Shown here piece by piece: positions 16,351 through 63,353 of a DNA stretch of 64,000 bases; within the stretch, counting starts at the first letter, position 1, and each line of letters starts with the position of its first letter. Origin of the DNA: a virus. Position numbers and translations under genes: made by a program. Below the pieces are notes generated by a model, which saw only the letters and a list, made by a program, of their open reading frames with translations, made no database searches and was not told the DNA's origin. The stretch is from the IMG/VR virus record IMGVR_UViG_3300035698_018106, positions 102,717 through 166,716 of that record. One strand, given 5' to 3'.

Positions 16351-18186
16351 TTATGATATTATTTTTCGTTCAGTTTCTGGTAAATTACTAGGTTCAAATT
16401 GAGTAATTATAGAACCTTCCCATGTTCTATATTCATTTATAATACTATCATAAAAATTATGAATTGCTTTCGGCGTTATTTCCATAAATAATGAACCATT
16501 TCCATCTTCAATTGCTCTATATGCTGGTAATTTATCTTTATTATCCATAGCGCCAATATTAAATTCAGATAAAACATTAAGTTTACCTCCCATAATTTCT
16601 TCTTCAAAAAATAATTGCAAAGACATATCCGATTCTTTACCCTTATCTGTAAAGAATATTAATGGTTCGTAATGTGGTCTAACAAATTCAAATATTTCTT
16701 TAAGACTCCATGATTCTAACATCATAAAAGAAGGAATAAGCGATTTATTAAAGTTAGATAAAGATCTCATTTGAGCTTTTATTGCTTCATTACTTAAATG
16801 AAAATCTGATCCTTTGAGATCTTTTTCTCCACTAACTGCAGCTATTATAACTGGAACATTCCATTGATTATGTATTTGTTCTATATTTGTCATTTGAGCA
16901 CTAGTGAATGGTGTAAATTCAGTAAGATATATAGCTACTCTATCTTCACCTTGAGGTACTTCTCTAGGATTTGGTACAAAAGCATTTTGAATAGAAGAAA
17001 TAACTCTCATATTATCGATATCATTAGGTTGACGTCTTTTAAGAGTTTTAACTGTAATATTATCAGATCTTCTTTCATTTATAGATTCATTTATAAAATC
17101 TATTGAATTACGCTCTTCATTTGTTAAATCAGATATTCTATCTACAAAATTATTAAATTTAGTAACTATAGATTCTGATAATAATCCATATGGTTTTTTA
17201 TATTTTCTAAATGATGAAAGTATTACTCTATATAATGCTTCATAAATAGGATCTTCATTAATTAAATTAAGTGCTTTTTCATTTTTAATGAATTTTTTAT
17301 TTAATTTGCCAATATTATTATATTGAGGTGAAGTTAAATATTTTGGTTCTAATCCTTCTGCTATTTGTTCTGTTTTACAGTATTCTACAAATATATCACT
17401 AACTATTTCAATATACATTTCTGAAAGAGTTTCGGATTGTATATTCGGGAAAGAATAATCATTGACAAATTCAGTTAAACTTAATAATACGATATCATAA
17501 AAATCTCTAGAAGAATGTTGTTTTTGATAAGCTTCATTTAATAGTTTGAATTCATAAGAAAGTACTTGTAATAAAGATTTTTTAGATTTAATAACTATAC
17601 CTTCTATAATATCTTCTCCTGAATATGATAATCCGAAAGTTTTAGAAACTAATTCACTTAATGTATCATATTTACAATCATCATAACTTTGAGTATCATA
17701 ATCAATTAAACATTGTTTTTGTTCTTCATTTAATTTCCCTTCAAATAAAACTGGTGGTCTACCCATGCAAAGTATTCCAGCCCATTCATTTATTTCATTA
17801 TAATTATAAGATTCTATTATCTTTCCATTTTCTCTTTTAGTAATATCTGTTAACACATATTTGGGTAAGTTTGTATATGGTATTCTATGAGGTCGTTCAA
17901 TAGGAGTATATGCAATTCCAAATCTTATACCTTCTGGAATAAATGTATCATCTATTATAATAGGTATTTCTATTAAGGCGGATTCCCATATATCATTTAA
18001 TGTTCTTTCAACTAATGTTATTTCAGAATTATCTTTTTTAAAGAAAATAATTTCTCCATCTACTTTTTCAAAGAGGATTCTAAATGTATCTAGTTTTTCG
18101 GATATAACTATCTCATCATTTAGTACTTTGTCAACGTAGTTTCGTCCTTTTTTTTCTAAGACCTGACTAATCGTATTTAATCCCAT
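16351..18186 (-). CDS. Rnl1-like RNA ligase nucleotidyltransferase domain (N-terminal) followed by additional domains, including a degenerate cytidylyltransferase-like segment
   Basis: 611 aa. ILFEKVDGEI is a motif I (KxDG) candidate at ~residue 41. EDIIEGIVIKSKKS at ~195 matches Rnl1 motifs IV and V (T4 Rnl1 [20 protein letters not shown]). The C-terminal RVAIYLTEFTPFTSAQM...NVPVIIAAVSGEKD aligns with the N-terminus of the 621-aa paralogue (IIIMIPGGFKPTTGAHL...NVKEVKVIVGPKERD). Confidence 0.45.
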   Translation of the reverse strand: MGLNTISQVLEKKGRNYVDKVLNDEIVISEKLDTFRILFEKVDGEIIFFKKDNSEITLVERTLNDIWESALIEIPIIIDDTFIPEGIRFGIAYTPIERPHRIPYTNLPKYVLTDITKRENGKIIESYNYNEINEWAGILCMGRPPVLFEGKLNEEQKQCLIDYDTQSYDDCKYDTLSELVSKTFGLSYSGEDIIEGIVIKSKKSLLQVLSYEFKLLNEAYQKQHSSRDFYDIVLLSLTEFVNDYSFPNIQSETLSEMYIEIVSDIFVEYCKTEQIAEGLEPKYLTSPQYNNIGKLNKKFIKNEKALNLINEDPIYEALYRVILSSFRKYKKPYGLLSESIVTKFNNFVDRISDLTNEERNSIDFINESINERRSDNITVKTLKRRQPNDIDNMRVISSIQNAFVPNPREVPQGEDRVAIYLTEFTPFTSAQMTNIEQIHNQWNVPVIIAAVSGEKDLKGSDFHLSNEAIKAQMRSLSNFNKSLIPSFMMLESWSLKEIFEFVRPHYEPLIFFTDKGKESDMSLQLFFEEEIMGGKLNVLSEFNIGAMDNKDKLPAYRAIEDGNGSLFMEITPKAIHNFYDSIINEYRTWEGSIITQFEPSNLPETERKIIS

Positions 18187-19310: not shown

Positions 19311-20843
19311 TTAAAGTTGAATTTTGAATCTTTTATAAGGGAAACGTTTTTCAGCGTAAATATCTCTTCTAGCATCCGCATGTCTCATTAAATAATTTTT
19401 TCGTTGATATCCACTTCCAAACTCATAATTATCAAAAAAATCAATAACTATAACCTTTTCTTTACCTGACATAAGTCTCATACCTCTACCCAAAACTTGT
19501 CTTACTATAAAATCTGATTTATAAGATTCCACTACAAAAATAGTATGTAAGTTTAAAATATCTATACCTTCAGAAAAAGTACCAATAGATGCAACAATTA
19601 TCACATCATTATTGTCTTCCATTTGTTTTTTATAATAGTCTCTATTATCTGCACCTGTACCACCATCTATGTAATAGACGCTTTTGTCTGTGTTCTCTTT
19701 TATCCAATTATATATAGTCCTACCATAATTATTTTTAATGTCACTAAATAACACTAGAGAGTTTTTAGTGGTTTTACTTATCATATCAACTATATAGTTA
19801 AAACGCTTTCTGGATTCCCTTGCAACATCCTTCTCTAAATTTAATAATTTAGCTCCATCTTTATCTTCAGCAGGTACATTTCTTAAATCATATAATTTTT
19901 TCTTTATATTGTTTTCAAGATAAGAAAATTCTAATCCTATTACTTCTATAGGGGTTGCATTCCCGGCATCAATTAAATCAGAAGAATGAATAGTATATAC
20001 TTTTGGTCCTAAATATGATTGAATAGTAAATGAATCACAAGAATCTTCTTTTGGAAGTGTTCCAGTTAATCCAAATTTATATTCTGCATTAAAACATTTA
20101 ACAAGAATACTTTTAATTGAATTGGCTTTAGCATGATGGGTTTCGTCTACACAAACAGCATCAAACTGTGCAAAATATTCTAATCCTTTTTTTGATAAAG
20201 TTTGATATGTTCCAAAAACTATATCAATATCTGTTTCATCATCTCTTTTCTTTGCTCCACCAAATGCGCATACAGATTTCCAATTAGGTCTCTTATCACA
20301 TCCATCTTCATATTCATAGAATTTTTCTTCTGATTGTGTTACTAATCCTACATTAGGAACAACATATAACATTTTAGGTTTATTAAGAACATCATGTAAG
20401 TATTTAAATATTAAAAAGGCTATAAGTGTTTTACCTCCTGATGTTGAAATTTCTTCTGTACAATTCTTAAATTTAATAACTCGGGCAGCACCTTCTAATT
20501 GATAATCTCTAGGTGTTATTTTAGAAGCACTGAAATATTCAGTTGCCCAAATTTTAAATGTACTAGCATCAAATTTATCATCAATCATAGAATCCATACC
20601 ATTTATAGATAAAGGGAAATGGAATTTTGTACAAACCTTTTTAATTTCCATCCACATACCGATAGGAATTCTACCCCATCTATCCATAAATTTAACATCT
20701 CCATCCCAATGAGGTACTTTTTTCTTAATGATGAAATAATTATCGACTTTTTTAGTCATAGAATATTCCAACTGTTCATATTCATTAGCTGTAGATTCTA
20801 CTATTTGTAGAAATTTCTTATCATCTGTTACTTTTAGTACCAT
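19311..20843 (-). CDS. uvsW: UvsW-like SF2 DNA helicase (recombination and replication fork remodelling)
   Basis: 510 aa (T4 UvsW is 502). Collinear matches to T4 UvsW: HWDGDVKF (NWDGRIRL), DYQLEGA, SGGKTL (Walker A), DETHH (DECH), KFGLTGTL (KFGLSGSL) and VIIVASIGTFSEGIDILNLHTIFVV (IIIVASYGVFSTGISVKNLHHVVL). Confidence 0.85.
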   Translation of the reverse strand: MVLKVTDDKKFLQIVESTANEYEQLEYSMTKKVDNYFIIKKKVPHWDGDVKFMDRWGRIPIGMWMEIKKVCTKFHFPLSINGMDSMIDDKFDASTFKIWATEYFSASKITPRDYQLEGAARVIKFKNCTEEISTSGGKTLIAFLIFKYLHDVLNKPKMLYVVPNVGLVTQSEEKFYEYEDGCDKRPNWKSVCAFGGAKKRDDETDIDIVFGTYQTLSKKGLEYFAQFDAVCVDETHHAKANSIKSILVKCFNAEYKFGLTGTLPKEDSCDSFTIQSYLGPKVYTIHSSDLIDAGNATPIEVIGLEFSYLENNIKKKLYDLRNVPAEDKDGAKLLNLEKDVARESRKRFNYIVDMISKTTKNSLVLFSDIKNNYGRTIYNWIKENTDKSVYYIDGGTGADNRDYYKKQMEDNNDVIIVASIGTFSEGIDILNLHTIFVVESYKSDFIVRQVLGRGMRLMSGKEKVIVIDFFDNYEFGSGYQRKNYLMRHADARRDIYAEKRFPYKRFKIQL

Positions 20844-21042
20844 TAATTATATTTTCTTTTATTACCTCACCACAAGTTTGACATATATTAGCTTTCCTGA
20901 TACTACCTATACGCCACATATAATCTTCTTCTTTTACTATTGTATGCGGACATTTTTTTCTAATTTTCTTTAGAGTTTCTGAAGCTACTTCAATATCTTT
21001 ATAACATTTCTTTACCCATCTTTTAATATCAAAATTATTCAT
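20821..21042 (-). CDS. small Cys-containing protein (CPH...CQTC), positional analogue of T4 UvsW.1
   Basis: 73-aa ORF immediately 3' of uvsW, overlapping it by 23 nt. Confidence 0.35.
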   Translation of the reverse strand: MNNFDIKRWVKKCYKDIEVASETLKKIRKKCPHTIVKEEDYMWRIGSIRKANICQTCGEVIKENIINGTKSNR

Positions 21043-21322
21043 ATATTTTTTTTGATATTATTTTTTCAAAAACTTCTTCCATATAATTTCTTCCTGATTC
21101 CATTTTATAATCTCTGGAAGATTTCCAACAATTCCACTTAAAGAACTTACCATCAGATTTTCTTTTAACGATAGTATCCCATGAAGGACCATCAGAATAT
21201 TCATCAGTTCTTATAGTTTCTATAAAGTCATAAGTTTCTTCTCTTAATCCCCATTGTCTTCCACCAGTAAAATCAAAATCTTCTACTTCTTCTGACGTTA
21301 AATTAATTCTTTCTTTATTCAT
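21035..21322 (-). CDS. hypothetical protein
   Basis: 95-aa ORF, 8-nt overlap with its neighbour. Confidence 0.4.
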   Translation of the reverse strand: MNKERINLTSEEVEDFDFTGGRQWGLREETYDFIETIRTDEYSDGPSWDTIVKRKSDGKFFKWNCWKSSRDYKMESGRNYMEEVFEKIISKKIYE

Positions 21323-21323
21323 T

Positions 21324-21794
21324 TTATTTTCCTCTTGTTATTTGTTCAATTTCTATTCGTTTAGGAATTGCATATATAAGATTATCTATAGTACTACAAG
21401 TTCCTTGTATAAATTTAGAATGATTATCTAATATTTCTCTTTTTTCAAGCAAATCAGATAATTGTGTTTGTATTTTATTATTTTTAGAAGTTTCATTAGG
21501 ATATCTAATATTAGACTTATATGTCCAATATTCATATTTTTCTACGTATTGTCTTCTATACTCTTTATTTATAATTATCAATTTTGATAAAAGATAATGA
21601 TAATATTCTATACATATTTGACGTTCTGTATATACTTCAGTCATTAATTCGCTAACTTTAAGAACACTTTTCATCTTAGATGACATATCCTCAACTCTTT
21701 TATTCCATTCTTCTCTTTCAGTTATAAATTTTTCTTCTAAAGAAGGTTCTTTTTTTATATCTGGATTAATGTTAAAAAAATCTACTTCTCCCAT
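21324..21794 (-). CDS. hypothetical protein
   Basis: 156-aa ORF. Confidence 0.4.
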   Translation of the reverse strand: MGEVDFFNINPDIKKEPSLEEKFITEREEWNKRVEDMSSKMKSVLKVSELMTEVYTERQICIEYYHYLLSKLIIINKEYRRQYVEKYEYWTYKSNIRYPNETSKNNKIQTQLSDLLEKREILDNHSKFIQGTCSTIDNLIYAIPKRIEIEQITRGK

Positions 21795-22123
21795 GGCATA
21801 GGTATTAAATTTAAAAATTCGTGCGCTGTTTTTTTAAGTGTATCTAGATACACCCAATGTTCGGAAATTTCATTATTTGAATTCAAATATGTAATAAATG
21901 CAACATCTGCTGGATAAGTGCTAGAAGGATGGCCTTTCATTACTTGATGTATCTTTTTCTTAGATGTTACTTTTTCTGTCCAAGATTTTAGTTTATCTTC
22001 TTTAGATAATTTTAAAATTTCACATGGTATTACAGTTTGATCTGTATCCCATTCATTAGATTTAGATATAGAATTTAATTTATAAACTATATCATTTTTT
22101 TTAAAAGAGTTTTGTGCTAGCAT
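21782..22123 (-). CDS. hypothetical protein
   Basis: 113-aa ORF. Confidence 0.4.
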   Translation of the reverse strand: MLAQNSFKKNDIVYKLNSISKSNEWDTDQTVIPCEILKLSKEDKLKSWTEKVTSKKKIHQVMKGHPSSTYPADVAFITYLNSNNEISEHWVYLDTLKKTAHEFLNLIPMPWEK

Positions 22124-22292
22124 CTTTTTTAAATTTATTTGTCTTAATTATTGATTTAACTGAAACTTCTACAACTTTCGCTTTCTTTTTTATTTTATCT
22201 TCTGTAAGTCCAAAAGAAAAATCAACATCTCCCATTAAATCACTTTCGATACCAAAAGAATGTGTTACTATAGTTTTTAACTTATGTTCCAT
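22101..22292 (-). CDS. hypothetical protein
   Basis: 63-aa ORF in a tightly packed operon. Confidence 0.3.
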   Translation of the reverse strand: MEHKLKTIVTHSFGIESDLMGDVDFSFGLTEDKIKKKAKVVEVSVKSIIKTNKFKKDASTKLF

Positions 22293-22297
22293 ATTTA

Positions 22298-23419
22298 TTA
22301 TATATCAATAGCATCTAAAGGATCTCCGGAGAAGTAACTTATAAAATCTACATTTTTAATTTTTTGTTGTTTAAAATAAATTACTATATCATTTAGATCC
22401 CATTTTTTTCGATAAGGTAAATTAAAATCTCTTTTGAATTTATCCCAAAGAAATACATTATGGTTTTTATTAATTTCAATTAATGCGTTTTTATCTCCTG
22501 TTGGATCGGAATCATAAAAGAAATTCACAGGTATATCAACGGGTAAATCTTTATTTGCTCCTGTGTTTGCAATAGAATTTTTAAATAGAAATGCATCCAT
22601 TGGACCTTCAAATAGTGTAATAGTTCTACTAAAATTTATTAAACATATGTTATATATCATTGATAGCGTATCTAGATAATTAACTTGCTCATTAGTTAAT
22701 AAAAGTAGAGGATTATTAATTTTATCTCTTAATTTTGATAAAGTAAAAGAATTAAATCTATTAAATCCTTTAAATAAACGCATTTGTGCTCCTAAAATCT
22801 TACCTGTTTGGGTAAGGTTTAAAATTAAGAGATAATTATCATTTGGATGATATAGAAATTTGTTAAAATCATATTGTTCTCTATTTTTTAACCATGACCA
22901 CATAGGGGTATCTTTAACTTCTATAACACCTAAACTAGTTTTAATATCTTGACGATCAATAGCATATTTATCTATACTTTCCATATCTAAAAGTTCAGAC
23001 ATGTCATATTTTCCTCCTGATGTAGATTTAAAATCGCCTATATTATCCATTAAATAATTTATAGCGCCTAATTCTAAAATTATATCATGCTCTTTAAAGA
23101 ATCTATCTATCCTCATAAATTCTGCACAATTATGACATTTGAAAAAACCAGCGTGTTTTCCTGCTAGTATAAAATTCCCCCTTTTAGCATAATCACTTTT
23201 CATACTATCTCCACAAATAGGACAAGCGAAACTGATACGATCATGATGAGGTTGGATTTGAGTTTTTCCATGTGAATTCGGAAATCTTTTCTCAAGAATA
23301 GGTTTTAATAAATCTGTTAATTTATCTTTATATTCTCCAGTAGTTAGCTTTGCATCTAAAGAAGAATGGAGAGATGAATCAAAGCTCATCTCTCCATTTA
23401 AAATCTTGTCAATTGACAT
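22298..23419 (-). CDS. 61: DNA primase, T4 gp61-like (Zn-ribbon plus TOPRIM)
   Basis: 373 aa. ISFACPICGDSMKSDYAKRGNF...FKCHNCAEFMRIDRFFKEHD aligns with T4 gp61 LRFRCPVCGDSKTDQNKARGWY...IHCYNCNYHAPIGIYLKEFEP. LFEGPMDAFLFKNSIANTGA aligns with T4 VLEGPIDSLFIENGIAITGG (TOPRIM). Confidence 0.85.
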   Translation of the reverse strand: MSIDKILNGEMSFDSSLHSSLDAKLTTGEYKDKLTDLLKPILEKRFPNSHGKTQIQPHHDRISFACPICGDSMKSDYAKRGNFILAGKHAGFFKCHNCAEFMRIDRFFKEHDIILELGAINYLMDNIGDFKSTSGGKYDMSELLDMESIDKYAIDRQDIKTSLGVIEVKDTPMWSWLKNREQYDFNKFLYHPNDNYLLILNLTQTGKILGAQMRLFKGFNRFNSFTLSKLRDKINNPLLLLTNEQVNYLDTLSMIYNICLINFSRTITLFEGPMDAFLFKNSIANTGANKDLPVDIPVNFFYDSDPTGDKNALIEINKNHNVFLWDKFKRDFNLPYRKKWDLNDIVIYFKQQKIKNVDFISYFSGDPLDAIDI

Positions 23420-23423
23420 GATT

Positions 23424-24413
23424 TTAAAGATTTCCTAAAACATCATTAATATCTCCTATTCCGCCAACACCAACTTCAGGTAAGTCCGGTAGATCAATAC
23501 TAGGTAAACCTGCCCCGCCTGGTGTATTACCTACATTTAGATCATCTAGTGATATATCACTAGATGTAATACCACCATTATTAACATCAGATACTGGATT
23601 ACTACCATGTGTTTGTGCTTGAACAGATGCTATATTATTAGTAGTATTAACTTGTCCTGTTACAGATGTTATAACTCCATTAACATAATCATATGTATCT
23701 TGATCCCATTCTTTGAAACCGTATTTTCCTAAATTAGGAGAATTATTAACAAGATAATCAAATACCATTTTCTTATCTGTTGTTGGAGTAATAGGATTTA
23801 ATTTTCCTTCTCCATCTGGAATACATAATGGAATTACCTGATCAACAAATTTTGATTGATCATAGTTATTGAAACCTGATACCTTTGTAATAGTTAAAGC
23901 AAATGCTTTACCTCCTAATAATTCAAAAGGATTATGTGGTTCTCCAATTACAGGTTTCAATTCTGCATTAATTTTTTCCCATAATTTCTTACCAAAACGA
24001 TATGCTAAGATTTTACCTTCAAGTTCTGGTTGTTGCTTATCTTTAATAACTTGTATTAAACATGCAAAATTATGTCGTCTTGAAAAAATATCGGCTTTTT
24101 TCTGTTCTTGAACTGACGGACTTTTCTTAAGTTTAAAATACATATCTTGTAAAAGAGATGGTTTTCCTACTGAAGATGGGCAGTCTACGAAACGTCCTTT
24201 TTGAGTTACTGGATCTACTAACCACGATACCCACTTTTCTTGAATTGATTGTCCTGGATTTTCATGCCATGGAATTAAACGGATAACTGATTGGTATACT
24301 CCGCCTTGGCCTTTGTCGGCGCCTACTTGGTAATCTTCGGCGTTTTTCTTGTTTTGTTCACCCATGTCTACTTTTGGGCTGAACAATGCATCAAAATTTT
24401 CTAATTCACTCAT
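23424..24413 (-). CDS. 32: single-stranded DNA-binding protein, T4 gp32-like
   Basis: 329 aa. GVYQSVIRLIPW (T4 GQAVIRFLPS), ILAYRFGKKLWEKINA (T4 VFKYRFGKKIWDKINA), FALTITKVSGFNNYDQSKF (T4 FVLKVKQVSGFSNYDESKF), and an acidic C-terminal tail ...DISLDDLN (T4 ...DLDDLLNDL). Confidence 0.9.
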   Translation of the reverse strand: MSELENFDALFSPKVDMGEQNKKNAEDYQVGADKGQGGVYQSVIRLIPWHENPGQSIQEKWVSWLVDPVTQKGRFVDCPSSVGKPSLLQDMYFKLKKSPSVQEQKKADIFSRRHNFACLIQVIKDKQQPELEGKILAYRFGKKLWEKINAELKPVIGEPHNPFELLGGKAFALTITKVSGFNNYDQSKFVDQVIPLCIPDGEGKLNPITPTTDKKMVFDYLVNNSPNLGKYGFKEWDQDTYDYVNGVITSVTGQVNTTNNIASVQAQTHGSNPVSDVNNGGITSSDISLDDLNVGNTPGGAGLPSIDLPDLPEVGVGGIGDINDVLGNL

Positions 24414-24640
24414 TGTTTTAAGTCTTTTTAGTTTTTAAGATTCTAAATTTTTTAGAATTCTAAGTTTATTAATATTTGTAATCTTTGTAATCTTTTAAGG
24501 TACCTTTTAGATTGTTTACTATAGTTTATATATCAAAAAAGCAGTAAAGTTTTTTAACTTTTTGTTAAAGTTTTACTACCTCTAAGTTATTACAATCCAA
24601 TACATTAAAATCACATTAACATACTCTTAACACAAAAGAC

Positions 24641-25009
24641 TTAACACTCATTTTTTACATTTTCTAATTTTTTAATATTTGGATTATATGTATCTAGTTT
24701 AATACATTTATGGAGGATTTCTAATGTTTCTACCTCAGTGTAATTATCAGGTCTTATATAAAAGCACTCTGGTTCTATTGGTATATTATTATACAAATAA
24801 ATCATTTGCGCACTGTCTTTATAATCTACACTTATTAAAAACCGAATATTGTTTTTGATTTGATATTTTTCCATAAAAGCATTATCGGGAATAACTTCAA
24901 AATCCATAGATACAATATTAACATCTGTGTTAATTAATAAAGTTTTAATAGATTTATAAGATGCTTGAGAAAAAATATTTAACTCTTTAATAAATTCATT
25001 ATTGTCCAT
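24641..25009 (-). CDS. hypothetical protein
   Basis: 122-aa ORF. Confidence 0.4.
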   Translation of the reverse strand: MDNNEFIKELNIFSQASYKSIKTLLINTDVNIVSMDFEVIPDNAFMEKYQIKNNIRFLISVDYKDSAQMIYLYNNIPIEPECFYIRPDNYTEVETLEILHKCIKLDTYNPNIKKLENVKNEC

Positions 25010-25045
25010 ATAATTAGTATGAACAATAATAGGTTTAGTTTTATA

Positions 25046-25504
25046 TTAGTATAAAACTAAAGTATTTGGGTCATTATGGTCATATTCAGGATCAATTACG
25101 AATCCTTGTTTTATAAAAGCTTCTTCAGCATCATTTGTGAATGGGTGAAGTATAATAGGCAATTGATATTTTGTTTTTAGAAAGTTAAATACCTGTTTAC
25201 TTATGCTAAATCCTCTAAATTTATATCCAATATAGATCCAGTTTATAATAATATCTTTTGTTCTTATTTTATAATCTATAACACCACATACTATATCATT
25301 ATTATAAATTACAAAAATATTAGTTCCTTTGACAGAATCTAATATCATTTCATCTGTTTCATTGGTATAATCAAATTCTGAATCTATAAATTTTTCTGAA
25401 TCCTTAAAATTTTTAACTAACTTGATATTATTTATTAATTTCGCTCTCATTTTATTCCCATCCTTTTTGAACATCTGGAGAGAAGTTCGCATACGAAAAT
25501 TCAT
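25046..25504 (-). CDS. hypothetical protein (possible GNAT-like fold). The true start is probably an internal Met (ATG at 25450-25448), which avoids the overlap with the upstream gene.
   Basis: 152-aa ORF. IGYKFRGFSISKQVF weakly resembles GNAT motif A. The 5' 53 nt overlap the upstream CDS in another frame. Confidence 0.35.
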   Translation of the reverse strand: MNFRMRTSLQMFKKDGNKMRAKLINNIKLVKNFKDSEKFIDSEFDYTNETDEMILDSVKGTNIFVIYNNDIVCGVIDYKIRTKDIIINWIYIGYKFRGFSISKQVFNFLKTKYQLPIILHPFTNDAEEAFIKQGFVIDPEYDHNDPNTLVLY

Positions 25505-27317
25505 CTCTAGATACTAACTTAACTACATTACCATTTAAATCACTACATGCAAAACCCTCTTGATTAGTTTTCTTTAAATCTCCAGATTTCATCTTAAGAT
25601 AAGTTTGGAATTTACCAATATTATTAAGTTTACTTATAAAGATTTCTTTTAGATTTGAAATTTCAGATATCATATGTATAATATATATCCATTCTTTATT
25701 TGATTGCTCTATAGCGTCAATCATCTCGGCAAATCTAACTATAACTTTATTTTGTCCTTTTTCAGTTTTAAGTTTACCTGCTTCCATTAACGATCTATTT
25801 TGAAGGAATTCTATAAATTCTGCAAGAACACCTTCTATCGAATTAAATGAATTAATTTTTACATTAGCTTTAATTAAAGAGTTCTGATAAATGTTAAATA
25901 ATTTTATAAGCTTTGTTGATTTGATTATATCATGATAATTAGTAGATATTTTAAGTGTTTTACCTATTACATTTAGATCAGTTAAAATAATTTCTATTTC
26001 TTTAGATTCTTCTTCTGTAAAGTTTATAACCCCTGCAAATGACTCAATATAAGGGTCTGTCATTAACATATTATCAATACTTGTTAATTCGGAAGATTTA
26101 GCATCATAACTAGCGCTAACATTTTCTAAATCTTTTCCTGTATATCTAGTATGCCATGTAATACCTATATCTGCTTTATTTATAAGATTTCCTAAATCTG
26201 ATTTTTTAGGTATAACATAATAAATAGTGTTTGGATGAAATGCCCAATAAGGTTCTCCTTCTATTTCGGCATCTTGTAATGACATATCATCAAATAAGAA
26301 ATCACCTTGCCAAATTTCTCCTTTTGGAAGATTAATTTTATCTATGTATTTTAGAAATGTTTTTAATTTATAAACTAATTGAGGTCTTTCTCCTAATTCA
26401 GATTCTATTTCAGCAATTGTTGAAAATACTTTTGGAGATTTTGAAAAAAGTCCTTTCATTGCAATACCATTATCTGGTAATCCTGGAAATTTAGACCATG
26501 CAAATATAGCAGGGGCTCCATCTATCTTTACAGAAAGACTCATATCTTCTTTTTTAGTTGAACCCTTTAGATCATTATATAAATTATTAAACATTTTTAG
26601 AACCCAATCAATTCCCTCTACTCCACCAAGTAATACTAAATCCTCAGCATGTGTCATATGCTTATTTACTTTTGATACTATAGTAGATTCATCTAATTTA
26701 TTAGACCCACCTAAATATTTCCATATATTTTCTATTTGATTTACTGAATTTTCAGGATATCCTGAAGCAAAACCTTTAAAATCGTCATTTTTGATATCTT
26801 CTCTTAATATAGATGCAGAAATTAATTCACCTTGATGTGGTCCATTTTTAAATTTCATAGGATCTACATCAATTACTAATTCAACTATTTCAACATCTTT
26901 AGGTACTCCATCAAAATATTTTCCTCCAGGTTGATTTTGTGTAGTAAAATCAACTACTCTTTTATAATCATCGCCTTTTGTACTAGCTCCTAACGCATAA
27001 CGACCTGGAGGTAAATCTTCAACTGCTTTATATGCAGTCAAAATAGGTGATGGATATTTTGATTTTTCTATAGATACATTAGAGATATGATTAGTAAGTT
27101 CTTTAGCAATCTTTACTCCTAAATCTTGACTTATTCCATCTCGTTCTTTAGGACCAACTATTACTTTAACTTCTTTTACATTTGGATGTTGAGCATATCT
27201 ATAAATTAAATCCAGATGAGCTCCTGTTGTTGGTTTAAACCCGCCCGGAATCATAATTATGATATCTGGTGGGTTTTTTGTTTTATCCCATTCTTTAATT
27301 GTCAGAAATCTTTTCAT
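25452..27317 (-). CDS. Two-domain protein: an N-terminal cytidylyltransferase-fold nucleotidyltransferase domain (NMNAT-like GxFxPxTxGH) and an Rnl1-like RNA ligase domain
   Basis: 621 aa. IIIMIPGGFKPTTGAHLDLIYRYA matches the (H/T)xGH nucleotidyltransferase signature. LSVKIDGAPAIFAW at ~residue 262 resembles ligase motif I (T4 Rnl1 ILTKEDGSLVSTY). AEIEGEPYWAF...YYVIPKKSDLG resembles Rnl1 motifs IV and V (EGYVAV...KIKSDWY). Confidence 0.45.
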   Translation of the reverse strand: MKRFLTIKEWDKTKNPPDIIIMIPGGFKPTTGAHLDLIYRYAQHPNVKEVKVIVGPKERDGISQDLGVKIAKELTNHISNVSIEKSKYPSPILTAYKAVEDLPPGRYALGASTKGDDYKRVVDFTTQNQPGGKYFDGVPKDVEIVELVIDVDPMKFKNGPHQGELISASILREDIKNDDFKGFASGYPENSVNQIENIWKYLGGSNKLDESTIVSKVNKHMTHAEDLVLLGGVEGIDWVLKMFNNLYNDLKGSTKKEDMSLSVKIDGAPAIFAWSKFPGLPDNGIAMKGLFSKSPKVFSTIAEIESELGERPQLVYKLKTFLKYIDKINLPKGEIWQGDFLFDDMSLQDAEIEGEPYWAFHPNTIYYVIPKKSDLGNLINKADIGITWHTRYTGKDLENVSASYDAKSSELTSIDNMLMTDPYIESFAGVINFTEEESKEIEIILTDLNVIGKTLKISTNYHDIIKSTKLIKLFNIYQNSLIKANVKINSFNSIEGVLAEFIEFLQNRSLMEAGKLKTEKGQNKVIVRFAEMIDAIEQSNKEWIYIIHMISEISNLKEIFISKLNNIGKFQTYLKMKSGDLKKTNQEGFACSDLNGNVVKLVSRDEFSYANFSPDVQKGWE

Positions 27318-27377
27318 TATGCTAATGTAACCAATTTTTTAATACAAAAAATATTTTTTGTTAAAATATAATTAAGA

Positions 27378-28124
27378 TTATAAATTTGATATTGTTCTTA
27401 TCATTGAGATGAGACTAGGTTGTGGATGACAATCTTGTTTATCACTTGGTTTTCTAAAAGATACATGTGTCCATACTCCTGGTGTGCCATCTAGAGCCCT
27501 CTGAGATACATCCCACATATCTTCATTATATGTTAATGGTATATTATAACTAGCACCCCAAAGGAGCAGAAGTTCACCGACAGATGCTAATTGTTCATCT
27601 GTATATGTTTCATAATATTTAAAGCCTCTAAATCCATCTTTATATTCTGTAACAGGACAATTTACAATATTTCCATAACAGGCATAATACTTTCCAGAAA
27701 CTGTTTTTTTCATTCGTGGTGTACCATCAGAATTCTTTCCGAATCTCATTTCTGTACCATCTCCTAAAACTAAGCCACCCCAATTATCGAATTCAATTCC
27801 AATTGAATATTTATCTAAAATATACTTTCCTTTTACACCTACATGAGATCCAAAAAATTTAGATGAAAATAGTTGATTAATAGTACCATCTCTGTCAATC
27901 ATTGCACATGTTGATACTGACTTATAGTTTTCCCAATGTTTTAAGTCTCCTGTAATTCCATCTCCACTAACAGTATGATGTAATATTATTTGAGACTTAG
28001 GATGTACTTCTTTTTTATATCTAGTCCATGGAATTTGTTTAAGTTTTTCATCTTTTATATCTAAAGCTTTTAATGAACTCCACTTATTAGAACCATAAAC
28101 AGTTACTTCTTCTATATTTGCCAT
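27378..28124 (-). CDS. N-acetylmuramoyl-L-alanine amidase (amidase_2/PGRP family) endolysin
   Basis: 248 aa. QIILHHTVSG (Zn-binding His motif) and KQDCHPQP near the C-terminus, matching the amidase_2 ...DCPG signature. Confidence 0.7.
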   Translation of the reverse strand: MANIEEVTVYGSNKWSSLKALDIKDEKLKQIPWTRYKKEVHPKSQIILHHTVSGDGITGDLKHWENYKSVSTCAMIDRDGTINQLFSSKFFGSHVGVKGKYILDKYSIGIEFDNWGGLVLGDGTEMRFGKNSDGTPRMKKTVSGKYYACYGNIVNCPVTEYKDGFRGFKYYETYTDEQLASVGELLLLWGASYNIPLTYNEDMWDVSQRALDGTPGVWTHVSFRKPSDKQDCHPQPSLISMIRTISNL

Positions 28125-28166
28125 AATTTTATTTTATATTATATATTCATATGACATAATTTCGAC

Positions 28167-28628
28167 TTAAATTTTTAATAGATTTTTTTTATAGATTTTT
28201 ATAATTCGCTCACATTTTTGTTTCCAATTAGGACTACCAAAAGAACTTATAGCTTTTGTTGGTGAACAATTTTTTAAAATCATTTTATTTTCTGTCCAAT
28301 CATCATCAATATGCCAAACGAAATTGTTTTCTTTTAGATAAGGCCATTTATTATCCATATTTGTAAAGTGCACTTTTTCTAATGGAAGTCCTATATCTTT
28401 AATAAGATCAAATAATTCAAAGTTAGTCTCATCAACATGATGTGTGGTATGATATTCAGCTTTATAAAGAGCATCATCACCAAATCTAGTTGTAGTAATC
28501 CATACATCATACCCTTTAATTATTAATTCCCTAGCATATTCTTTTATTGAAGGGAGTTCAATAGTGCCATCAAAATCAAATGATAAGCTAATATTTTTAT
28601 TTTCATTCATAGCGTTAAATATAACCAA
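28167..28628 (-). CDS. HAD-superfamily hydrolase (phosphatase)
   Basis: 153 aa. N-terminal SFDFDGTIE (DxDGT, the same motif as the T4 Pnkp phosphatase domain, DVDGT). Later HIDDD motif. Confidence 0.55.
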   Translation of the reverse strand: MVIFNAMNENKNISLSFDFDGTIELPSIKEYARELIIKGYDVWITTTRFGDDALYKAEYHTTHHVDETNFELFDLIKDIGLPLEKVHFTNMDNKWPYLKENNFVWHIDDDWTENKMILKNCSPTKAISSFGSPNWKQKCERIIKIYKKNLLKI

Positions 28629-59036: not shown

Positions 59037-59338
59037 AAAGACGTCCAAACAGAATCCCAGATAACATAGATATAGAAAAATCTTATTTAGAAATTGATGG
59101 ATTAGGTTGGAGATCGCCAATACATTTATCAATACATTCGATAATGGATTTAATGGAATTAGAATTACCACCTGCTCCAAATGTAAAAATTGTCACTTTT
59201 GAAGATCAAGATTCCTCGATAACTCGTCCACCTGATACATATTCAATTGATACATCTTTACATTTATCTGTAGATGAAAATTTTCTATATGTTTGGATAA
59301 ATAATAGATGGAAACGATTACCTTTATCTAATTTTTAA
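59033..59338 (+). CDS. hypothetical protein
   Basis: 101 aa. 4-nt overlap with the upstream gene. Confidence 0.35.
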   Translation: MKRRPNRIPDNIDIEKSYLEIDGLGWRSPIHLSIHSIMDLMELELPPAPNVKIVTFEDQDSSITRPPDTYSIDTSLHLSVDENFLYVWINNRWKRLPLSNF

Positions 59339-62300
59339 TAAGGTGGAAATCCAGGAAATCCAAATGTTTTAGCTCCGGTTGGTACAAAATTAGTAGTTAG
59401 CCATGCCCCCCATTTTATATTTTTTATTGGATTTAATTCTTCATATGCTGGAAAGGCATCTTTATTCTTTATTAATATTGATGATGCTTTTCTAATAGCT
59501 TCGAATTTTTGCTCGTTAAATTCAACTATACCTGACATAAATCCTTCATTATCTAATTTAAATGGCTTTTGTATTTTATTTACAATAGATTGATTAGATA
59601 ATTTATTTAAATCATCATCAATTTTTTTAAAAACTCTAGGACTTGGAGGACTTTTAATTGTTGCAAAAAAATCGGCTTGATAAGGTTGAAGTGTTATTGG
59701 AAGTGGAGCTACTATCTTCTCTGCTTTATCAATTAATTGTATTAAAGAATCTAGTGTTGTATTAATAGTTTTTTCGGATACTTCTAAAGATTTAAGTACT
59801 TTATCTGTATTGTTAATTCCAATAGAACCACCTCTAGAAACAGGTTCAATTAATGCGTATTTTTTCTCTAATTTCCATTTATTAGATTTTAGTTTAGTTT
59901 CTTCTTCTTTTAATATGTTTTTCTTAGATTCCCATATTAAAGATATCTTTTTATTTTTAGTAGTTTTTGGTGGTCTATTATTCTTATGATTTTGATATGA
60001 TTGAGTAGCTAATTTAATATCAGGCTCTATTTTATTAATATCATTTTTTATTACATCTAAGTGTTTTTGAACAGTATCCTTTTTAAGACTACTTAGTTGA
60101 TTTAATAATTTTTCTTTAATTTTATTAATTTGTTTTTTAATTACAGCAATAGGATCAGCTAATGGTAATGCATATCCACTAGTTAGATTTACAAATAAAG
60201 TAAAAGGAAATATATAAATACCTGTTATTGATAATCCAAATACTATAAATCCATAATCAGTTTCTATTGGCTTTATTGGAATATAAACCGTAGGTAATTT
60301 AAGAGGTCCTGTTGGTAATATTAATCCCGTTGACCACCCAGTTATAGGATTTAATACACTTGCTAATGTAGCTGCTGACATATATTTAAACCAATACTTA
60401 TTGTTACTCATATCTGTTGAACTGGCTTCTATCCCATCAGGTAAACATATACCTGTTTTATCATCAGGATCATTAGTTATAACATATTTTCTGTATATAA
60501 CATCAGTAGTTTCTATATTATAATATTTTAAAGATGATGGTAAATTATTTAATCTATCTTCTAATTCTTTAATTTCTAACGGAATATTTTCAAATCTTTT
60601 CCATATCGTTTTTATATAATTATCAATCCAATTCCCTTCGGTTATAACTCTAGATTTTTTATTAGAAGACTTTTTAGATTTATATTTTTTGGTAATATAT
60701 GTTATGTTAATTTTAAATTCTACTAAAAATAAAATTTTGTTGACATATAATTTATTATCATTATCATTTAATTTATTCTTTTTTGCTATACTATTAAGCC
60801 AGTCTTCTACATCACTTAATTTTTTATTTTGGTTATATAACCAAACACCTGTACCAAAATTTTTTCGTTGTGACTTAGTAATTCCATCTTGAAAATCTAC
60901 CATTAACTCATCACCTTTATCTGATATAGTTTTAGATTTCTGTCCATCAATTACATATCGTTCATTTATAAATTGATTAATTTTTAATCTAAAATCAGCT
61001 TCAATTGAATTAGGATCTTTAATACCATTTAGATTTACACCTAATTCAAATAAATAATATTCTATCATTGAATACTCCCCATCTAAAGGAACTGTTTTTT
61101 TAGCTATATTTTTTGATGATACCATAACATCTTTTAAATATCGATACAAAGATATATCTTCTTTATCAATATCTTCTTTTATTAAAGTAAGTGTTTCATT
61201 TACAGCATTTTTCTTTACATTACTTTCACCTGTTATTTGTTTAATAGCTTTATTATAAATATCATAATTATAATCCCAAGTCTTTTTTAATGAATCAAAT
61301 TGTTTACGCATATTAATATTAAGGCCTATTAGTGATTTTGCGGATGGATTACTAGTAGTAATAATAGAATGTCTCATCATAATAGGATATAAAGATACTA
61401 CTTCCCAATCCTTTAAAAACATCTTAACATCTGACAATTCCTGATATTTAGAGTTTAACTCTTCTAATGTTTGTCCTAAAACCGTATCTGTAGGTTCTGA
61501 GATGTCACTGATTACAATAGAAGAATCATGTAATATGGTAACTTTACCATTAATAGGAGAGTACACTGATTGATCCCCTATTATAGCTATTTTAGTTTTT
61601 GAATTTATAATTTGTCCTTTTTTAACTAATAAATTCCATTTGTCTTTTCGTATATTTTCTATAATTGCTTTAGTTGAATAATCAGGAGCAAAACTAGAAT
61701 TAAATATCAATTCTGGTTCGGAAATTCCTGGAATTGGACAAGAAAATTCAGCGGCTTTTATAGCAAATGGTTCTTTTGGCACTATACTTTCATCATCTTC
61801 TGTATGTTGACATATTAATTCAGTATCTAATTCAAAATTAGATGGCAATATATTATCAATAGTATTTTGAATATCATTGATAATTGAAATATCTTCATTA
61901 TTATCAGATGAATATACATAATCTAAACACATTTTTTCTTTAAGCTTATCTTCAGCATTTTTTTGAGATTTTTTCTTATTAGATAAGTATATAAATGAAG
62001 CAATTCCAATAGTTATAATTAATACATCTATTTTTTTGAAAGCAGACTTTATTTCATCCCATTCATCTCCATTATTTTTTTGGATAGATGATAGTGTTAT
62101 TCTAATTATTTTTTGTATATGTTTTATTCTAAAATTAGAAGGAAAATCTGTATCTTTTAGTAAATTAATAGCTAATTTAGTAACATACACATATAAAACT
62201 AATGTATTGATATATTTAGAATTATCACTTATATAATTTGTTGCAGAATCTTTTAAATTATTTGTTTTCATTATACCATCGAAATGGTTTTTATTAGTTT

Positions 62301-62751
62301 TGTTTAAACAACATAATTCATTTTTAATAAATTTATCAATTTTAGAAGATAAATCATCTGATTCAGAAAAATCTCCATCTTTAATATTATCTATTAAATT
62401 ATATTCTCCTAACTTATCAAATGTCGCAGTATGTAATGCTTCACATTTAAGTAATGCTGCATTAACTATATTATCAGATTCTAAATCATTAGATATTGAT
62501 AATATAGCATTTGTATACGGATTTTTTTTTATATCTACTTTTAATTGATTTATGTCATCTAAATTAAAACCGTTTGTTTTTGATTGGTTCTTTTTGATTA
62601 ATTTAGACATTGTTTCTTCTAATGTTTTTAATCCTTGAGAAAAAAGCAAGTCAAGAGACTTCGGAATACTAAAAAAATCAAGTTCTTCTTTTAATGATTT
62701 TGTTAATATTCCAGACAAAAATTTTAAAATTTCTTTGGCTATAGCTGTCAT
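59335..62751 (-). CDS. large protein with internal hydrophobic/TM segments and helical regions (tape-measure-like or ejected internal protein candidate)
   Basis: 1138 aa. Hydrophobic stretches VLIITIGIASFIYLS and GFIVFGLSITGIYIFPFTLFVNL. It lies next to the hub spike gene. Confidence 0.4.
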   Translation of the reverse strand: MTAIAKEILKFLSGILTKSLKEELDFFSIPKSLDLLFSQGLKTLEETMSKLIKKNQSKTNGFNLDDINQLKVDIKKNPYTNAILSISNDLESDNIVNAALLKCEALHTATFDKLGEYNLIDNIKDGDFSESDDLSSKIDKFIKNELCCLNKTNKNHFDGIMKTNNLKDSATNYISDNSKYINTLVLYVYVTKLAINLLKDTDFPSNFRIKHIQKIIRITLSSIQKNNGDEWDEIKSAFKKIDVLIITIGIASFIYLSNKKKSQKNAEDKLKEKMCLDYVYSSDNNEDISIINDIQNTIDNILPSNFELDTELICQHTEDDESIVPKEPFAIKAAEFSCPIPGISEPELIFNSSFAPDYSTKAIIENIRKDKWNLLVKKGQIINSKTKIAIIGDQSVYSPINGKVTILHDSSIVISDISEPTDTVLGQTLEELNSKYQELSDVKMFLKDWEVVSLYPIMMRHSIITTSNPSAKSLIGLNINMRKQFDSLKKTWDYNYDIYNKAIKQITGESNVKKNAVNETLTLIKEDIDKEDISLYRYLKDVMVSSKNIAKKTVPLDGEYSMIEYYLFELGVNLNGIKDPNSIEADFRLKINQFINERYVIDGQKSKTISDKGDELMVDFQDGITKSQRKNFGTGVWLYNQNKKLSDVEDWLNSIAKKNKLNDNDNKLYVNKILFLVEFKINITYITKKYKSKKSSNKKSRVITEGNWIDNYIKTIWKRFENIPLEIKELEDRLNNLPSSLKYYNIETTDVIYRKYVITNDPDDKTGICLPDGIEASSTDMSNNKYWFKYMSAATLASVLNPITGWSTGLILPTGPLKLPTVYIPIKPIETDYGFIVFGLSITGIYIFPFTLFVNLTSGYALPLADPIAVIKKQINKIKEKLLNQLSSLKKDTVQKHLDVIKNDINKIEPDIKLATQSYQNHKNNRPPKTTKNKKISLIWESKKNILKEEETKLKSNKWKLEKKYALIEPVSRGGSIGINNTDKVLKSLEVSEKTINTTLDSLIQLIDKAEKIVAPLPITLQPYQADFFATIKSPPSPRVFKKIDDDLNKLSNQSIVNKIQKPFKLDNEGFMSGIVEFNEQKFEAIRKASSILIKNKDAFPAYEELNPIKNIKWGAWLTTNFVPTGAKTFGFPGFPPY

Positions 62752-62753
62752 AA

Positions 62754-63353
62754 TTATTCATTCACTGGGATAACATGCTCTTTTCTGATTTGTTCTCCTT
62801 CTTCATCATGAAAAGAGTATACTCCTTTTCTAAAAGTTAATTCAAACGGTTCTTCTAATTTTTTGGCATATTTTTTACCTTCTCCTGGATTAACATATGC
62901 TAACGTCATATGTGGGTGATAATCTGGATAAGTTTGAGTGTTACTAAAATTATTTTCAAATTTATCTCTATATTGTTGAAGCTGATCACTAACAGGTACA
63001 TCATATTTAACAACATCATATTCTTCACCTTCAAAATATGAAATTTCATCTACTGTTACAGTAAGTGCTTCAATATCATTTTGTATAAGGTCCATTATTA
63101 TTTCCGGATCAATTTCATCCTCATGAATTCCGTATAATACAGTTACATGGGGATTATCTTCTAAACCGTATGAATCATCATATGGCTTTGTATATACATC
63201 TTTGGGGTCAATACCATCAGTATGTTTTTCCTTCCAATCAGAAATATCATTGGCATCTAACATAACACAACCATATGTCTTTTGTTCTTTATTTTTCTTA
63301 GGTTTTTCTTGATTGGTACTATCCCACTCATTTATTGATATAAATTTCTTCAT
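62754..63353 (-). CDS. 2H phosphoesterase (LigT / cyclic phosphodiesterase superfamily)
   Basis: 199 aa. Two H-x-T-x motifs about 75 aa apart: NPHVTVLYG and HPHMTLAYV. Confidence 0.55.
   Translation of the reverse strand: MKKFISINEWDSTNQEKPKKNKEQKTYGCVMLDANDISDWKEKHTDGIDPKDVYTKPYDDSYGLEDNPHVTVLYGIHEDEIDPEIIMDLIQNDIEALTVTVDEISYFEGEEYDVVKYDVPVSDQLQQYRDKFENNFSNTQTYPDYHPHMTLAYVNPGEGKKYAKKLEEPFELTFRKGVYSFHDEEGEQIRKEHVIPVNE

Follow-up and report, generated by a model that had tools for sequence, protein, structure and literature searches.

Phage phosphodiesterases (PDEs) of the 2H superfamily are now recognised as a main viral route for erasing nucleotide immune signals, with a substrate range that depends on the lineage. 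The 2H enzymes use two histidines for acid-base catalysis on a ribose 2'-OH and the adjacent phosphate, and either open a 2',3'-cyclic phosphate or cleave a phosphodiester through it (PMC9117128). In phages they are very diverse, and most of the groups tested degrade immune messengers, with group-specific ranges (10.1101/2025.08.21.671373). In this work we have analysed a stretch of viral DNA of 64,000 nt (positions 102,717 to 166,716 of the IMG/VR record IMGVR_UViG_3300035698_018106, called here the window), in which a gene for a 2H phosphoesterase directly follows the gene for a baseplate hub protein. The locus raises the question of what such an enzyme acts on and what its place beside the hub gene means. 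We tentatively favour, with a probability of about 45%, a late-expressed, Acb1-like degrader of host nucleotide signals.

The 2H gene and its product

The gene and its two catalytic motifs are located as follows.

62754..63353 (-): 2H phosphoesterase gene, an open reading frame (ORF) of 199 amino acids (aa) with an ATG start; isoelectric point (pI) 4.6, no transmembrane (TM) segment
63129-63149 (-): first catalytic motif, HVTVLYG, residues 69-75, with H69 and T71 forming HxT
62895-62912 (-): second catalytic motif, HMTLAY, residues 148-153, with H148 and T150 forming HxT

The protein, with a net charge of about -19, passed the cut-offs of two Pfam families, PF13563 (2_5_RNA_ligase2; 49.6 bits, cut-off 27) and PF02834 (LigT_PEase; 27.0 bits, cut-off 23.3), stayed below threshold with Pfam AKAP7 and 2H-SAK, and matched PHROG 755 'RNA ligase' with E 5e-9. 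The 2H fold, composed of two pseudo-symmetric alpha+beta lobes, was present in its AlphaFold2 (AF2) model (predicted local distance difference test score, pLDDT, 86). Foldseek searches with the model matched exclusively 2H-fold structures: Arabidopsis cyclic phosphodiesterase (CPDase), drCPDase, Usb1, LigT, Acb1, the PDE of phage BCSR5, the penguinpox cyclic GMP-AMP (cGAMP) PDE, VP3 and ns2. The model settles the assignment to the 2H superfamily, but not to a subfamily.

Among 70 diverse stand-alone representatives of the family, sharing 31-52% identity with the window protein, the residues H69, G75, F107, H148, T150 and Y162 are invariant and T71 is at least 90% conserved. The original prediction had derived a LigT/2H enzyme from the two HxTx motifs and had named the loss of the histidines in homologues as evidence against it; since both histidines are invariant in these diverse relatives, no such loss was found, and the two Pfam families and the modelled fold bear the assignment out. 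LigT, ns2 and Acb1-type enzymes, which it had proposed for structure comparison, are among the Foldseek matches, and the ORF, its motifs and its position as a stand-alone gene between a hub-spike gene and the gene of a 1138-aa TM-containing protein were confirmed in the window. We take the window gene to encode a 2H-superfamily enzyme with intact catalytic histidines which is apparently active.

Relationship to Acb1 and to the bacterial enzymes

Acb1 was the sole PDB sequence match of the 2H family profile (E 0.34). When a profile of the Acb1 family, built from 22 Acb1 proteins, was compared by hhalign with the close 2H family (alignment A1) and with the diverse one (A5), the probabilities were 91% (E 9e-7, 44 columns) and 95.8% (E 7.5e-9, 95 columns), respectively. 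Against single sequences the 2H family gave 81% with T4 Acb1 and 2.8-4.7% with Escherichia coli ThpR. Both NCBIfam equivalogs of the bacterial enzymes were missed widely by the window protein: ThpR (TIGR02258) with 25.0 vs 65.7 bits and YjcG (PRK13679) with 29.2 vs 129 bits. With a median pI of 4.75 the 2H family is acidic like the Acb1 family (5.56) and unlike ThpR (10.5).

The second motif of the window protein lies within YPDYHPHMTLAY, which matches YPDYRPHITLSY of FBB1 Acb1. The pattern [YF]PDYxPHxTLxY is common to the 2H family and Acb1, including the aromatic residue at -6 from the second histidine, the probable counterpart of which in Acb1 is the base-stacking F107. Y27 on strand 1 of the window protein aligns in position with Acb1 Y12 and, from the alignments, window Y27, F107 and Y142 are plausible equivalents of Acb1 Y12, W74 and F107. 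Some relatives pass the Pfam Acb1 cut-off (e.g. P0323 with 29.1 bits). Profile comparison places the 2H family as a neighbour of Acb1, of which it would be the closest relative, and much nearer to it than to E. coli ThpR.

Distribution of the family

Metagenomes contained 197 full-length homologues of the window protein at 50-70% identity. A search with a hidden Markov model (HMM) of 40 of these yielded, at E<=1e-3, 5,004 cluster representatives (clustering at 50% identity) and, at E<=1e-10, 3,086. Only 11 relatives, all on contigs of metagenome-assembled genomes (MAGs), were found in a scan of one genome per species covering 185,579 prokaryotic species; IMG/VR held 228, many on contigs of 100-500 kb. 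The nearest matches in the phage collection belong to uncultured phages of 480-640 kb. More distant relatives, annotated as '2'-5' RNA ligase' or 'RNA ligase', come from some Microbacterium phages and from Molly and Colly, Maribacter phages which are the closest cultured carriers, with an identity of only 29%. The family is large and essentially confined to phages.

Genomic context

The window is AT-rich (about 27% GC), is devoid of tRNA genes, and carries T4-like replication genes (gp32, primase, UvsW-like helicase) together with baseplate genes. Its gp32 is most similar (36-38% identity) to gp32 of Lak and other huge uncultured phages, and a megablast of the window region 52-64 kb against phage records gave no match. 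The features relevant to the position of the 2H gene are the following.

63353..>64000 (-): baseplate hub/spike gene (Phage_base_V OB domain), 3' part only, running off the window end; directly upstream of the 2H gene
59335..62751 (-): gene of the 1138-aa protein, starting 2 nt past the 2H stop; two TM-like hydrophobic 19-mers at residues 238-256 and 836-854
27378..28628 (-): Amidase_2 gene and a gene for a 153-aa HAD-like protein; the 2H gene directly follows these in 13 related loci, and this slot is empty in the window

The hub was identified by PF04717 (17.9 bits in the truncated window copy) and PHROG 37871 (E 5.8e-6), and its full-length orthologues of 257-260 aa have PF04717 matches. 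The hub stop and the 2H start overlap in TAATG, which implies co-expression of the two genes. The T4 late-promoter motif TATAAATA was not enriched (27 found vs 34.8 expected), and sigma-70-like sites around the 2H operon were at chance level (39 vs 41). The 1138-aa protein gave no match in Pfam, PHROG or a PDB sequence search, and its likeness to Lak megaphage sequences is limited to residues 771-907; our guess is that it may be a tape-measure or ejection protein.

All window proteins were compared by tblastn with 89 related loci, in which three arrangements were distinguished. Arrangement A, with the order hub -> 2H, is found in 34 of the 89, with 2H proteins that are 43-72% identical to the window protein and are spread over several deep branches of a neighbour-joining (NJ) tree; a homologue of the 1138-aa protein lies downstream on the same strand in about 21 loci and on the opposite strand in 4. 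Among 33 loci in which the gap between hub and 2H was measured, 19 have <=40 nt, and in the other 14 inserted ORFs widen it to 200-2,100 nt; the ORFs separating the two genes in these 14 loci resemble homing-endonuclease insertions. Arrangement B (13 loci) has the order HAD - Amidase_2 - (x) - 2H - (ORFs) - HIGH-NTase-DUF6267 - gp32 - primase - helicase, where HIGH-NTase-DUF6267 denotes a HIGH-type nucleotidyltransferase (NTase) fused to DUF6267, encoded 1-3 kb downstream of 2H. This block is present in the window (28628..19311, -) but without the 2H gene. The neighbouring ORFs in arrangement B gave no Pfam matches, and one of them was called a Pol-beta NTase from a GS...DxD motif read by eye. 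In a further 13 loci, which belong to more distant huge phages (LR756502 among them), 2H lies 0.4-3.5 kb upstream of gp32 (arrangement C). The hub-adjacent position of the 2H gene is therefore stable in the lineage of the window but not universal. The idea that the gp32-proximal position is ancestral and the hub position derived was dropped, as the NJ tree nests arrangement B beside the A subclade of the window.

Several of the related contigs have peculiarities of their own. Two copies of the 2H gene (7253-7738 and 10037-10474) lie 2.3 kb apart on contig L056, and in other related loci the UvsW-like helicase gene carries Hint/intein matches and homing-endonuclease ORFs (NUMOD3, GIY-YIG) interrupt the replication block (L001 18953-19963; L002 16567-17013 and 19495-20049).

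Fused forms of the 2H domain

The window copy stands alone, and fused forms occur elsewhere. Close homologues are found in GNAT-2H (P0081, 38 member sequences on 29 contigs), ART-PolyVal-2H (P0026) and 2H-DUF7919 (P0006) proteins. Among the top 150 cluster representatives 54 are multidomain proteins of 380-2,400 aa with the family signature, and 36 of these 54 match Pfam Acb1 at E<=1e-4. A PolyA_pol head domain is present in 14, PolyA_pol_RNAbd in 13 and tRNA_NucTran2_2 in 6; in the three examples for which the domain positions were read, the CCA-adding-type domains directly adjoin the 2H domain. ART-PolyVal occurs in 4 of the 54, a fungal tRNA-ligase CPD domain in 2, and NUDIX, RES and GNAT as single cases. 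The 17 Pfam families matched at E<=1e-4 across the 54 proteins do not include the Phage_base_V hub, portal or MuF.

That phages have 2H domains both inside polyvalent proteins and as solo genes has already been described by Iyer et al. 2017 (PMC5512222), who argued that polyvalent proteins are packaged and injected. In that analysis 2H domains of this type never associate with RNA ligases, and the roles proposed for them are those of a Usb1-like RNase or of nucleotide-signal degradation rather than of a partner of RNA ligases (PMC5512222). Judged by its sequence, the window gene is the stand-alone counterpart of these polyvalent-protein 2H domains.

Candidate partners in RNA repair

Besides the HAD genes, three genes of the window were considered.

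25452..27317 (-): HIGH-type NTase (PPAT-like) fused to DUF6267, 621 aa, with invariant KxDG and EG positions in DUF6267
16351-18186 (-): 611-aa ligase-like protein, in which KVDG at residue 41, YVLTDI and EGIVIK were read by eye as ligase motifs I, IIIa and IV
25046-25504 (-): GNAT-like ORF, 152 aa, 16.5 bits and sub-threshold in Pfam, with an overlap of 53 nt into the 3' end of the gene for NTase-DUF6267

The original prediction had the 2H enzyme complement two Rnl-like ligases and two HAD phosphatases. One HAD protein, encoded 49 kb from the 2H gene, indeed matches the Pnkp-type phosphatase PHROG 415 (E 4.7e-12), and for the other the match is only weak. The two ligases could not be established. 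The 611-aa protein is sub-threshold with Pfam RNA_ligase (18.1 vs 27 bits), and its homologues in phage records are found only in uncultured phages of 460-735 kb. The 621-aa protein is the NTase-DUF6267 fusion. A Foldseek search of the PDB with the confident AF2 model of DUF6267 (pLDDT 89) matched neither a ligase nor another fold, and searches of PDB sequences with a DUF6267 profile and with the 611-aa protein likewise gave no match. DUF6267 is also a conserved domain of T4-like cyanophages, many records of which annotate a cytidylyltransferase under this match, and of pelagiphage HTVC008M. No polynucleotide kinase or validated RNA ligase turned up in the part of the window proteins that was scanned.

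In relatives the 2H enzyme carries an N-terminally fused GNAT domain. The GNAT-like ORF of the window, tried as an ortholog of that domain, gave a BLASTP match of E 0.002 only and is not clearly orthologous.

Two further ORFs of the window deserve mention. A 511-aa, extremely acidic protein (13666-15201, -) has runs of DTDVDT and DDDDKDS repeats and no PHROG match. A 478-aa ORF (9119-10555, -), which in tblastn has a counterpart of 34% identity in the related locus L058, resembles on reading the exonuclease part, the N-terminal one, of a family B DNA polymerase; as it seems too short for a complete enzyme of that family, this may be a split or interrupted gene.

The N-terminal peptide

The 2H protein begins with a short conserved segment that recurs on other proteins.

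63315..63353 (-): conserved N-terminal peptide MKKFISINEWDST and flexible linker of the 2H protein; family consensus MKFxS[FL]xxW[LI]xE

The window protein starts MKKFISINEWD. Residues F4, W10 and E13 of the peptide are at least 90% conserved in alignment A1, and the strict pattern was found in 83 of 120 homologues. In the AF2 model the peptide forms a short helix (residues 7-13, pLDDT about 50) that is not docked and is followed by a disordered linker. The HIGH-NTase-DUF6267 protein of the window, unrelated to 2H, starts with the same peptide (MKRFLTIKEWD, 27285-27317, -), as do most long forms of this protein (e.g. MKFLSLSSWLNE and MSFISFKSWLNE). It also heads the Pol-beta-like ORF (L021 10912-11481) and small ORFs beside 2H (L041 5541-5945, L047 5348-5704), and the pattern across the enzymes is [FVI]xx[IFL]KxW[IL]NE. 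Copies are alike within one genome, as in L001 (MGFKSLNDW and MGFKKLKDW; copies at 10001 and 13202). The peptide is kept internally in GNAT- and ART-fusions and is absent from some members of the 2H family. Conservation of the DNA around the translation start was rejected as its explanation: the upstream DNA is unrelated, and the peptide is therefore a feature of the protein.

The lid of phage 2H PDEs can be N-terminal, as in PDE-9, PDB 9Q2G (10.1101/2025.08.21.671373). By analogy, an N-terminal lid is a candidate role that would account for the peptide on the 2H enzyme, and the simpler one there, whereas a shared targeting or docking tag is the candidate that better accounts for its presence on unrelated enzymes.

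Function of the 2H enzyme

The reading favoured here is that of a late-expressed, Acb1-like degrader of host nucleotide signals. The metal-independent 2H phosphodiesterase would bind a small messenger of host defence systems, either a cyclic di- or trinucleotide or a short 2'-5'/3'-5' oligoadenylate, and the tetrad H69/T71 and H148/T150 would catalyse the attack of a ribose 2'-OH on the adjacent phosphodiester. A 2',3'-cyclic phosphate intermediate would form and then be hydrolysed, by which the signal would be silenced. We infer the substrate, the expression timing and the biological role of the enzyme, as well as a chemistry that would be the general 2H one. The gene would be co-transcribed, and is probably translationally coupled, with the baseplate hub gene, so that its product would be made late. 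[quoted passage not shown] Degradation of immune signals had been among the functions originally proposed; it is plausible and has gained support because the 2H family is a profile-level neighbour of Acb1, although the window protein itself stays below the Acb1 cut-off.

Several points weigh against this reading. With Pfam Acb1 (PF23474) the window protein scored 22.8 bits vs the cut-off of 27 (E 8.1e-5), and the hhalign match between the 2H family and Acb1 is confined to the part that starts with the first HxT and ends shortly after the second. A conserved insert of ~30 residues lies between strand 1 and the first HxT of the 2H protein, and reading alignments A1 and A2 revealed no equivalent of Acb1 E141 or of the lid residue W147. 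Moreover, the C-terminus past H182 is variable in the 2H family, so the Acb1 C-terminal lid (residues 145-152) is not matched, and the conserved flexible segment is N-terminal instead. Because of the Pfam score and the unmatched lid, the window protein is best described as Acb1-related, yet not a member of Acb1 proper. Of seven structural groups of phage 2H PDEs that were tested, two cleaved none of 18 messengers (10.1101/2025.08.21.671373). The CCA-adding-type fusions in 14 of the 54 multidomain relatives and the HAD and nucleotidyltransferase neighbours in arrangement B point to repair of RNA ends, and the degradation reading is a prediction.

The main rival, healing of RNA or tRNA 3' ends, appears somewhat unlikely. 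In this scheme the 2H enzyme would open the 2',3'-cyclic phosphate ends left by host metal-independent RNases, a HAD phosphatase would take off the phosphate, and a CCA-adding or RlaP-like NTase and/or a ligase-like enzyme would restore the RNA. The domains found in the multidomain relatives (PolyA_pol head, PolyA_pol_RNAbd, tRNA_NucTran2_2 and the tRNA-ligase CPD domain) are consistent with it, but polyvalent proteins string together unrelated counter-defence domains and fusion is therefore weak evidence of a shared pathway. The 13 arrangement-B loci, in which the 2H gene is flanked by the HAD and amidase genes on one side and by the Pol-beta-like ORF, HIGH-NTase-DUF6267 and gp32 on the other, and the peptide common to the 2H and NTase-DUF6267 proteins argue in the same direction; in the window, however, the 2H gene lies 35 kb from the candidate partners. 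The window does encode the Pnkp-type HAD and the 611-aa protein with ligase motifs, but the scanned part of its proteins yielded neither a kinase nor a validated ligase, DUF6267 has no ligase fold match, and 2H domains of this type are reported never to associate with RNA ligases. While the best Pfam and NCBIfam names are LigT and 2',3'-cyclic phosphodiesterase, the protein is far under the ThpR and YjcG equivalog cut-offs, its family reaches less than 5% with ThpR in hhalign, and its net charge is unfavourable to tRNA binding. A different 2H chemistry, either that of a Usb1-like 3'-5' exoribonuclease on host RNA or the hydrolysis of ADP-ribose 1'',2''-cyclic phosphate or other NAD-derived cyclic phosphates, is quite improbable.

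It is doubtful that the enzyme, whatever its substrate, is virion cargo, produced late along with the hub, taken up into the head or tail tip and delivered together with the DNA, with the N-terminal peptide as the loading tag. The hub -> 2H order in 34 related loci, often with a short gap, suggests such a link, but the 26 loci of arrangements B and C hold the gene in the replication region near gp32. The peptide, undocked in the model and common to unrelated enzymes (2H, NTase-DUF6267 and the Pol-beta-like ORF), would suit a tag; against this stand its absence from some family members, its internal position in fusions and the simpler role of a lid in the 2H enzyme. Relatives inside ART-PolyVal polyvalent proteins, predicted to be packaged and injected, and the precedents from T4, where an N-terminal capsid targeting sequence serves to package Alt and the internal proteins, are in line with the proposal, which rests on gene order and analogy; the 2H protein is, however, very acidic, unlike DNA-associated internal proteins. 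Improbable as it is, the peptide could be a modular loading or docking tag that sends the 2H enzyme, HIGH-NTase-DUF6267 and the Pol-beta-like NTase into the virion as a counter-defence and RNA-repair kit to be delivered with the DNA. The site of loading could be the head, as with the capsid targeting sequence of T4, or the VgrG-like hub, in the manner of a type VI secretion system (T6SS) cargo effector whose gene follows vgrG. If this were true, the hub -> 2H order would be the phage equivalent of vgrG -> effector. The shared peptide is the most promising lead from this locus.

The window gene represents a very large phage-only 2H lineage, comprising thousands of 50%-identity clusters, many of them in jumbo and megaphages. 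The lineage sits between Acb1-like signal degraders and CCA-enzyme-linked forms that resemble RNA-repair enzymes.

Comparison with known systems

The anti-CBASS 2H nuclease Acb1 (T4 gene 57B; Erwinia phage FBB1, PDB 7T26/7T27) has the 2H fold and the HxT/HxT tetrad in common with the window protein, and both lineages are acidic, phage-only and stand-alone. Acb1 has 152 aa and the window protein 199 aa, from which Acb1 differs with respect to the conserved N-terminal peptide and linker and to the insert before the first HxT. T4 acb1 also sits amid late tail and baseplate genes, in the order ipI-57B-57A-1-3-2-4 and next to 53-5. The bacterial RNA 2',3'-cyclic phosphodiesterases ThpR/LigT and YjcG are more remote: ThpR is basic whereas the window protein is acidic, and the second motif of ThpR, HITLLR, ends in R, that of the window protein in Y. 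In comparison with the phage 2H PDE-9 (Burkholderia phage BCSR5, PDB 9Q2G/9Q2Y) and the penguinpox cGAMP PDE (9BKQ), a lid is only a candidate role for the window N-terminus; the presence of the peptide on unrelated enzymes, as seen with the window protein, has not been reported for PDE-9.

The N-termini invite comparison with T4. Acb1 proteins start M(K)FxDFS and T4 Acb1 MMEFKDFST; T4 IPI, the gene of which adjoins acb1, starts MKTFKEFTS, and its N-terminus carries the capsid targeting sequence. T4 Alt and IPI-III are packaged via this sequence, a short peptide on otherwise unrelated proteins as here, and T4 Alt-family genes are associated with baseplate genes, their products being made late and packaged. 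The likeness is in pattern only.

As in the 2H domains of Iyer et al. 2017, the relatives found here are joined to ART-PolyVal, GNAT and NUDIX, and the solo phage forms are without a link to an ATP-grasp RNA ligase. Unlike those cases, the window 2H is a separate gene in a baseplate hub operon, not fused to MuF or portal, and the frequent fusion with CCA-adding enzymes in our sample also differs from the polyvalent 2H domains described there. The window 2H gene is one more member of the phage solo 2H phosphodiesterases, a known class with kinship to Acb1 and polyvalent 2H domains, and does not amount to a new mechanism or system.

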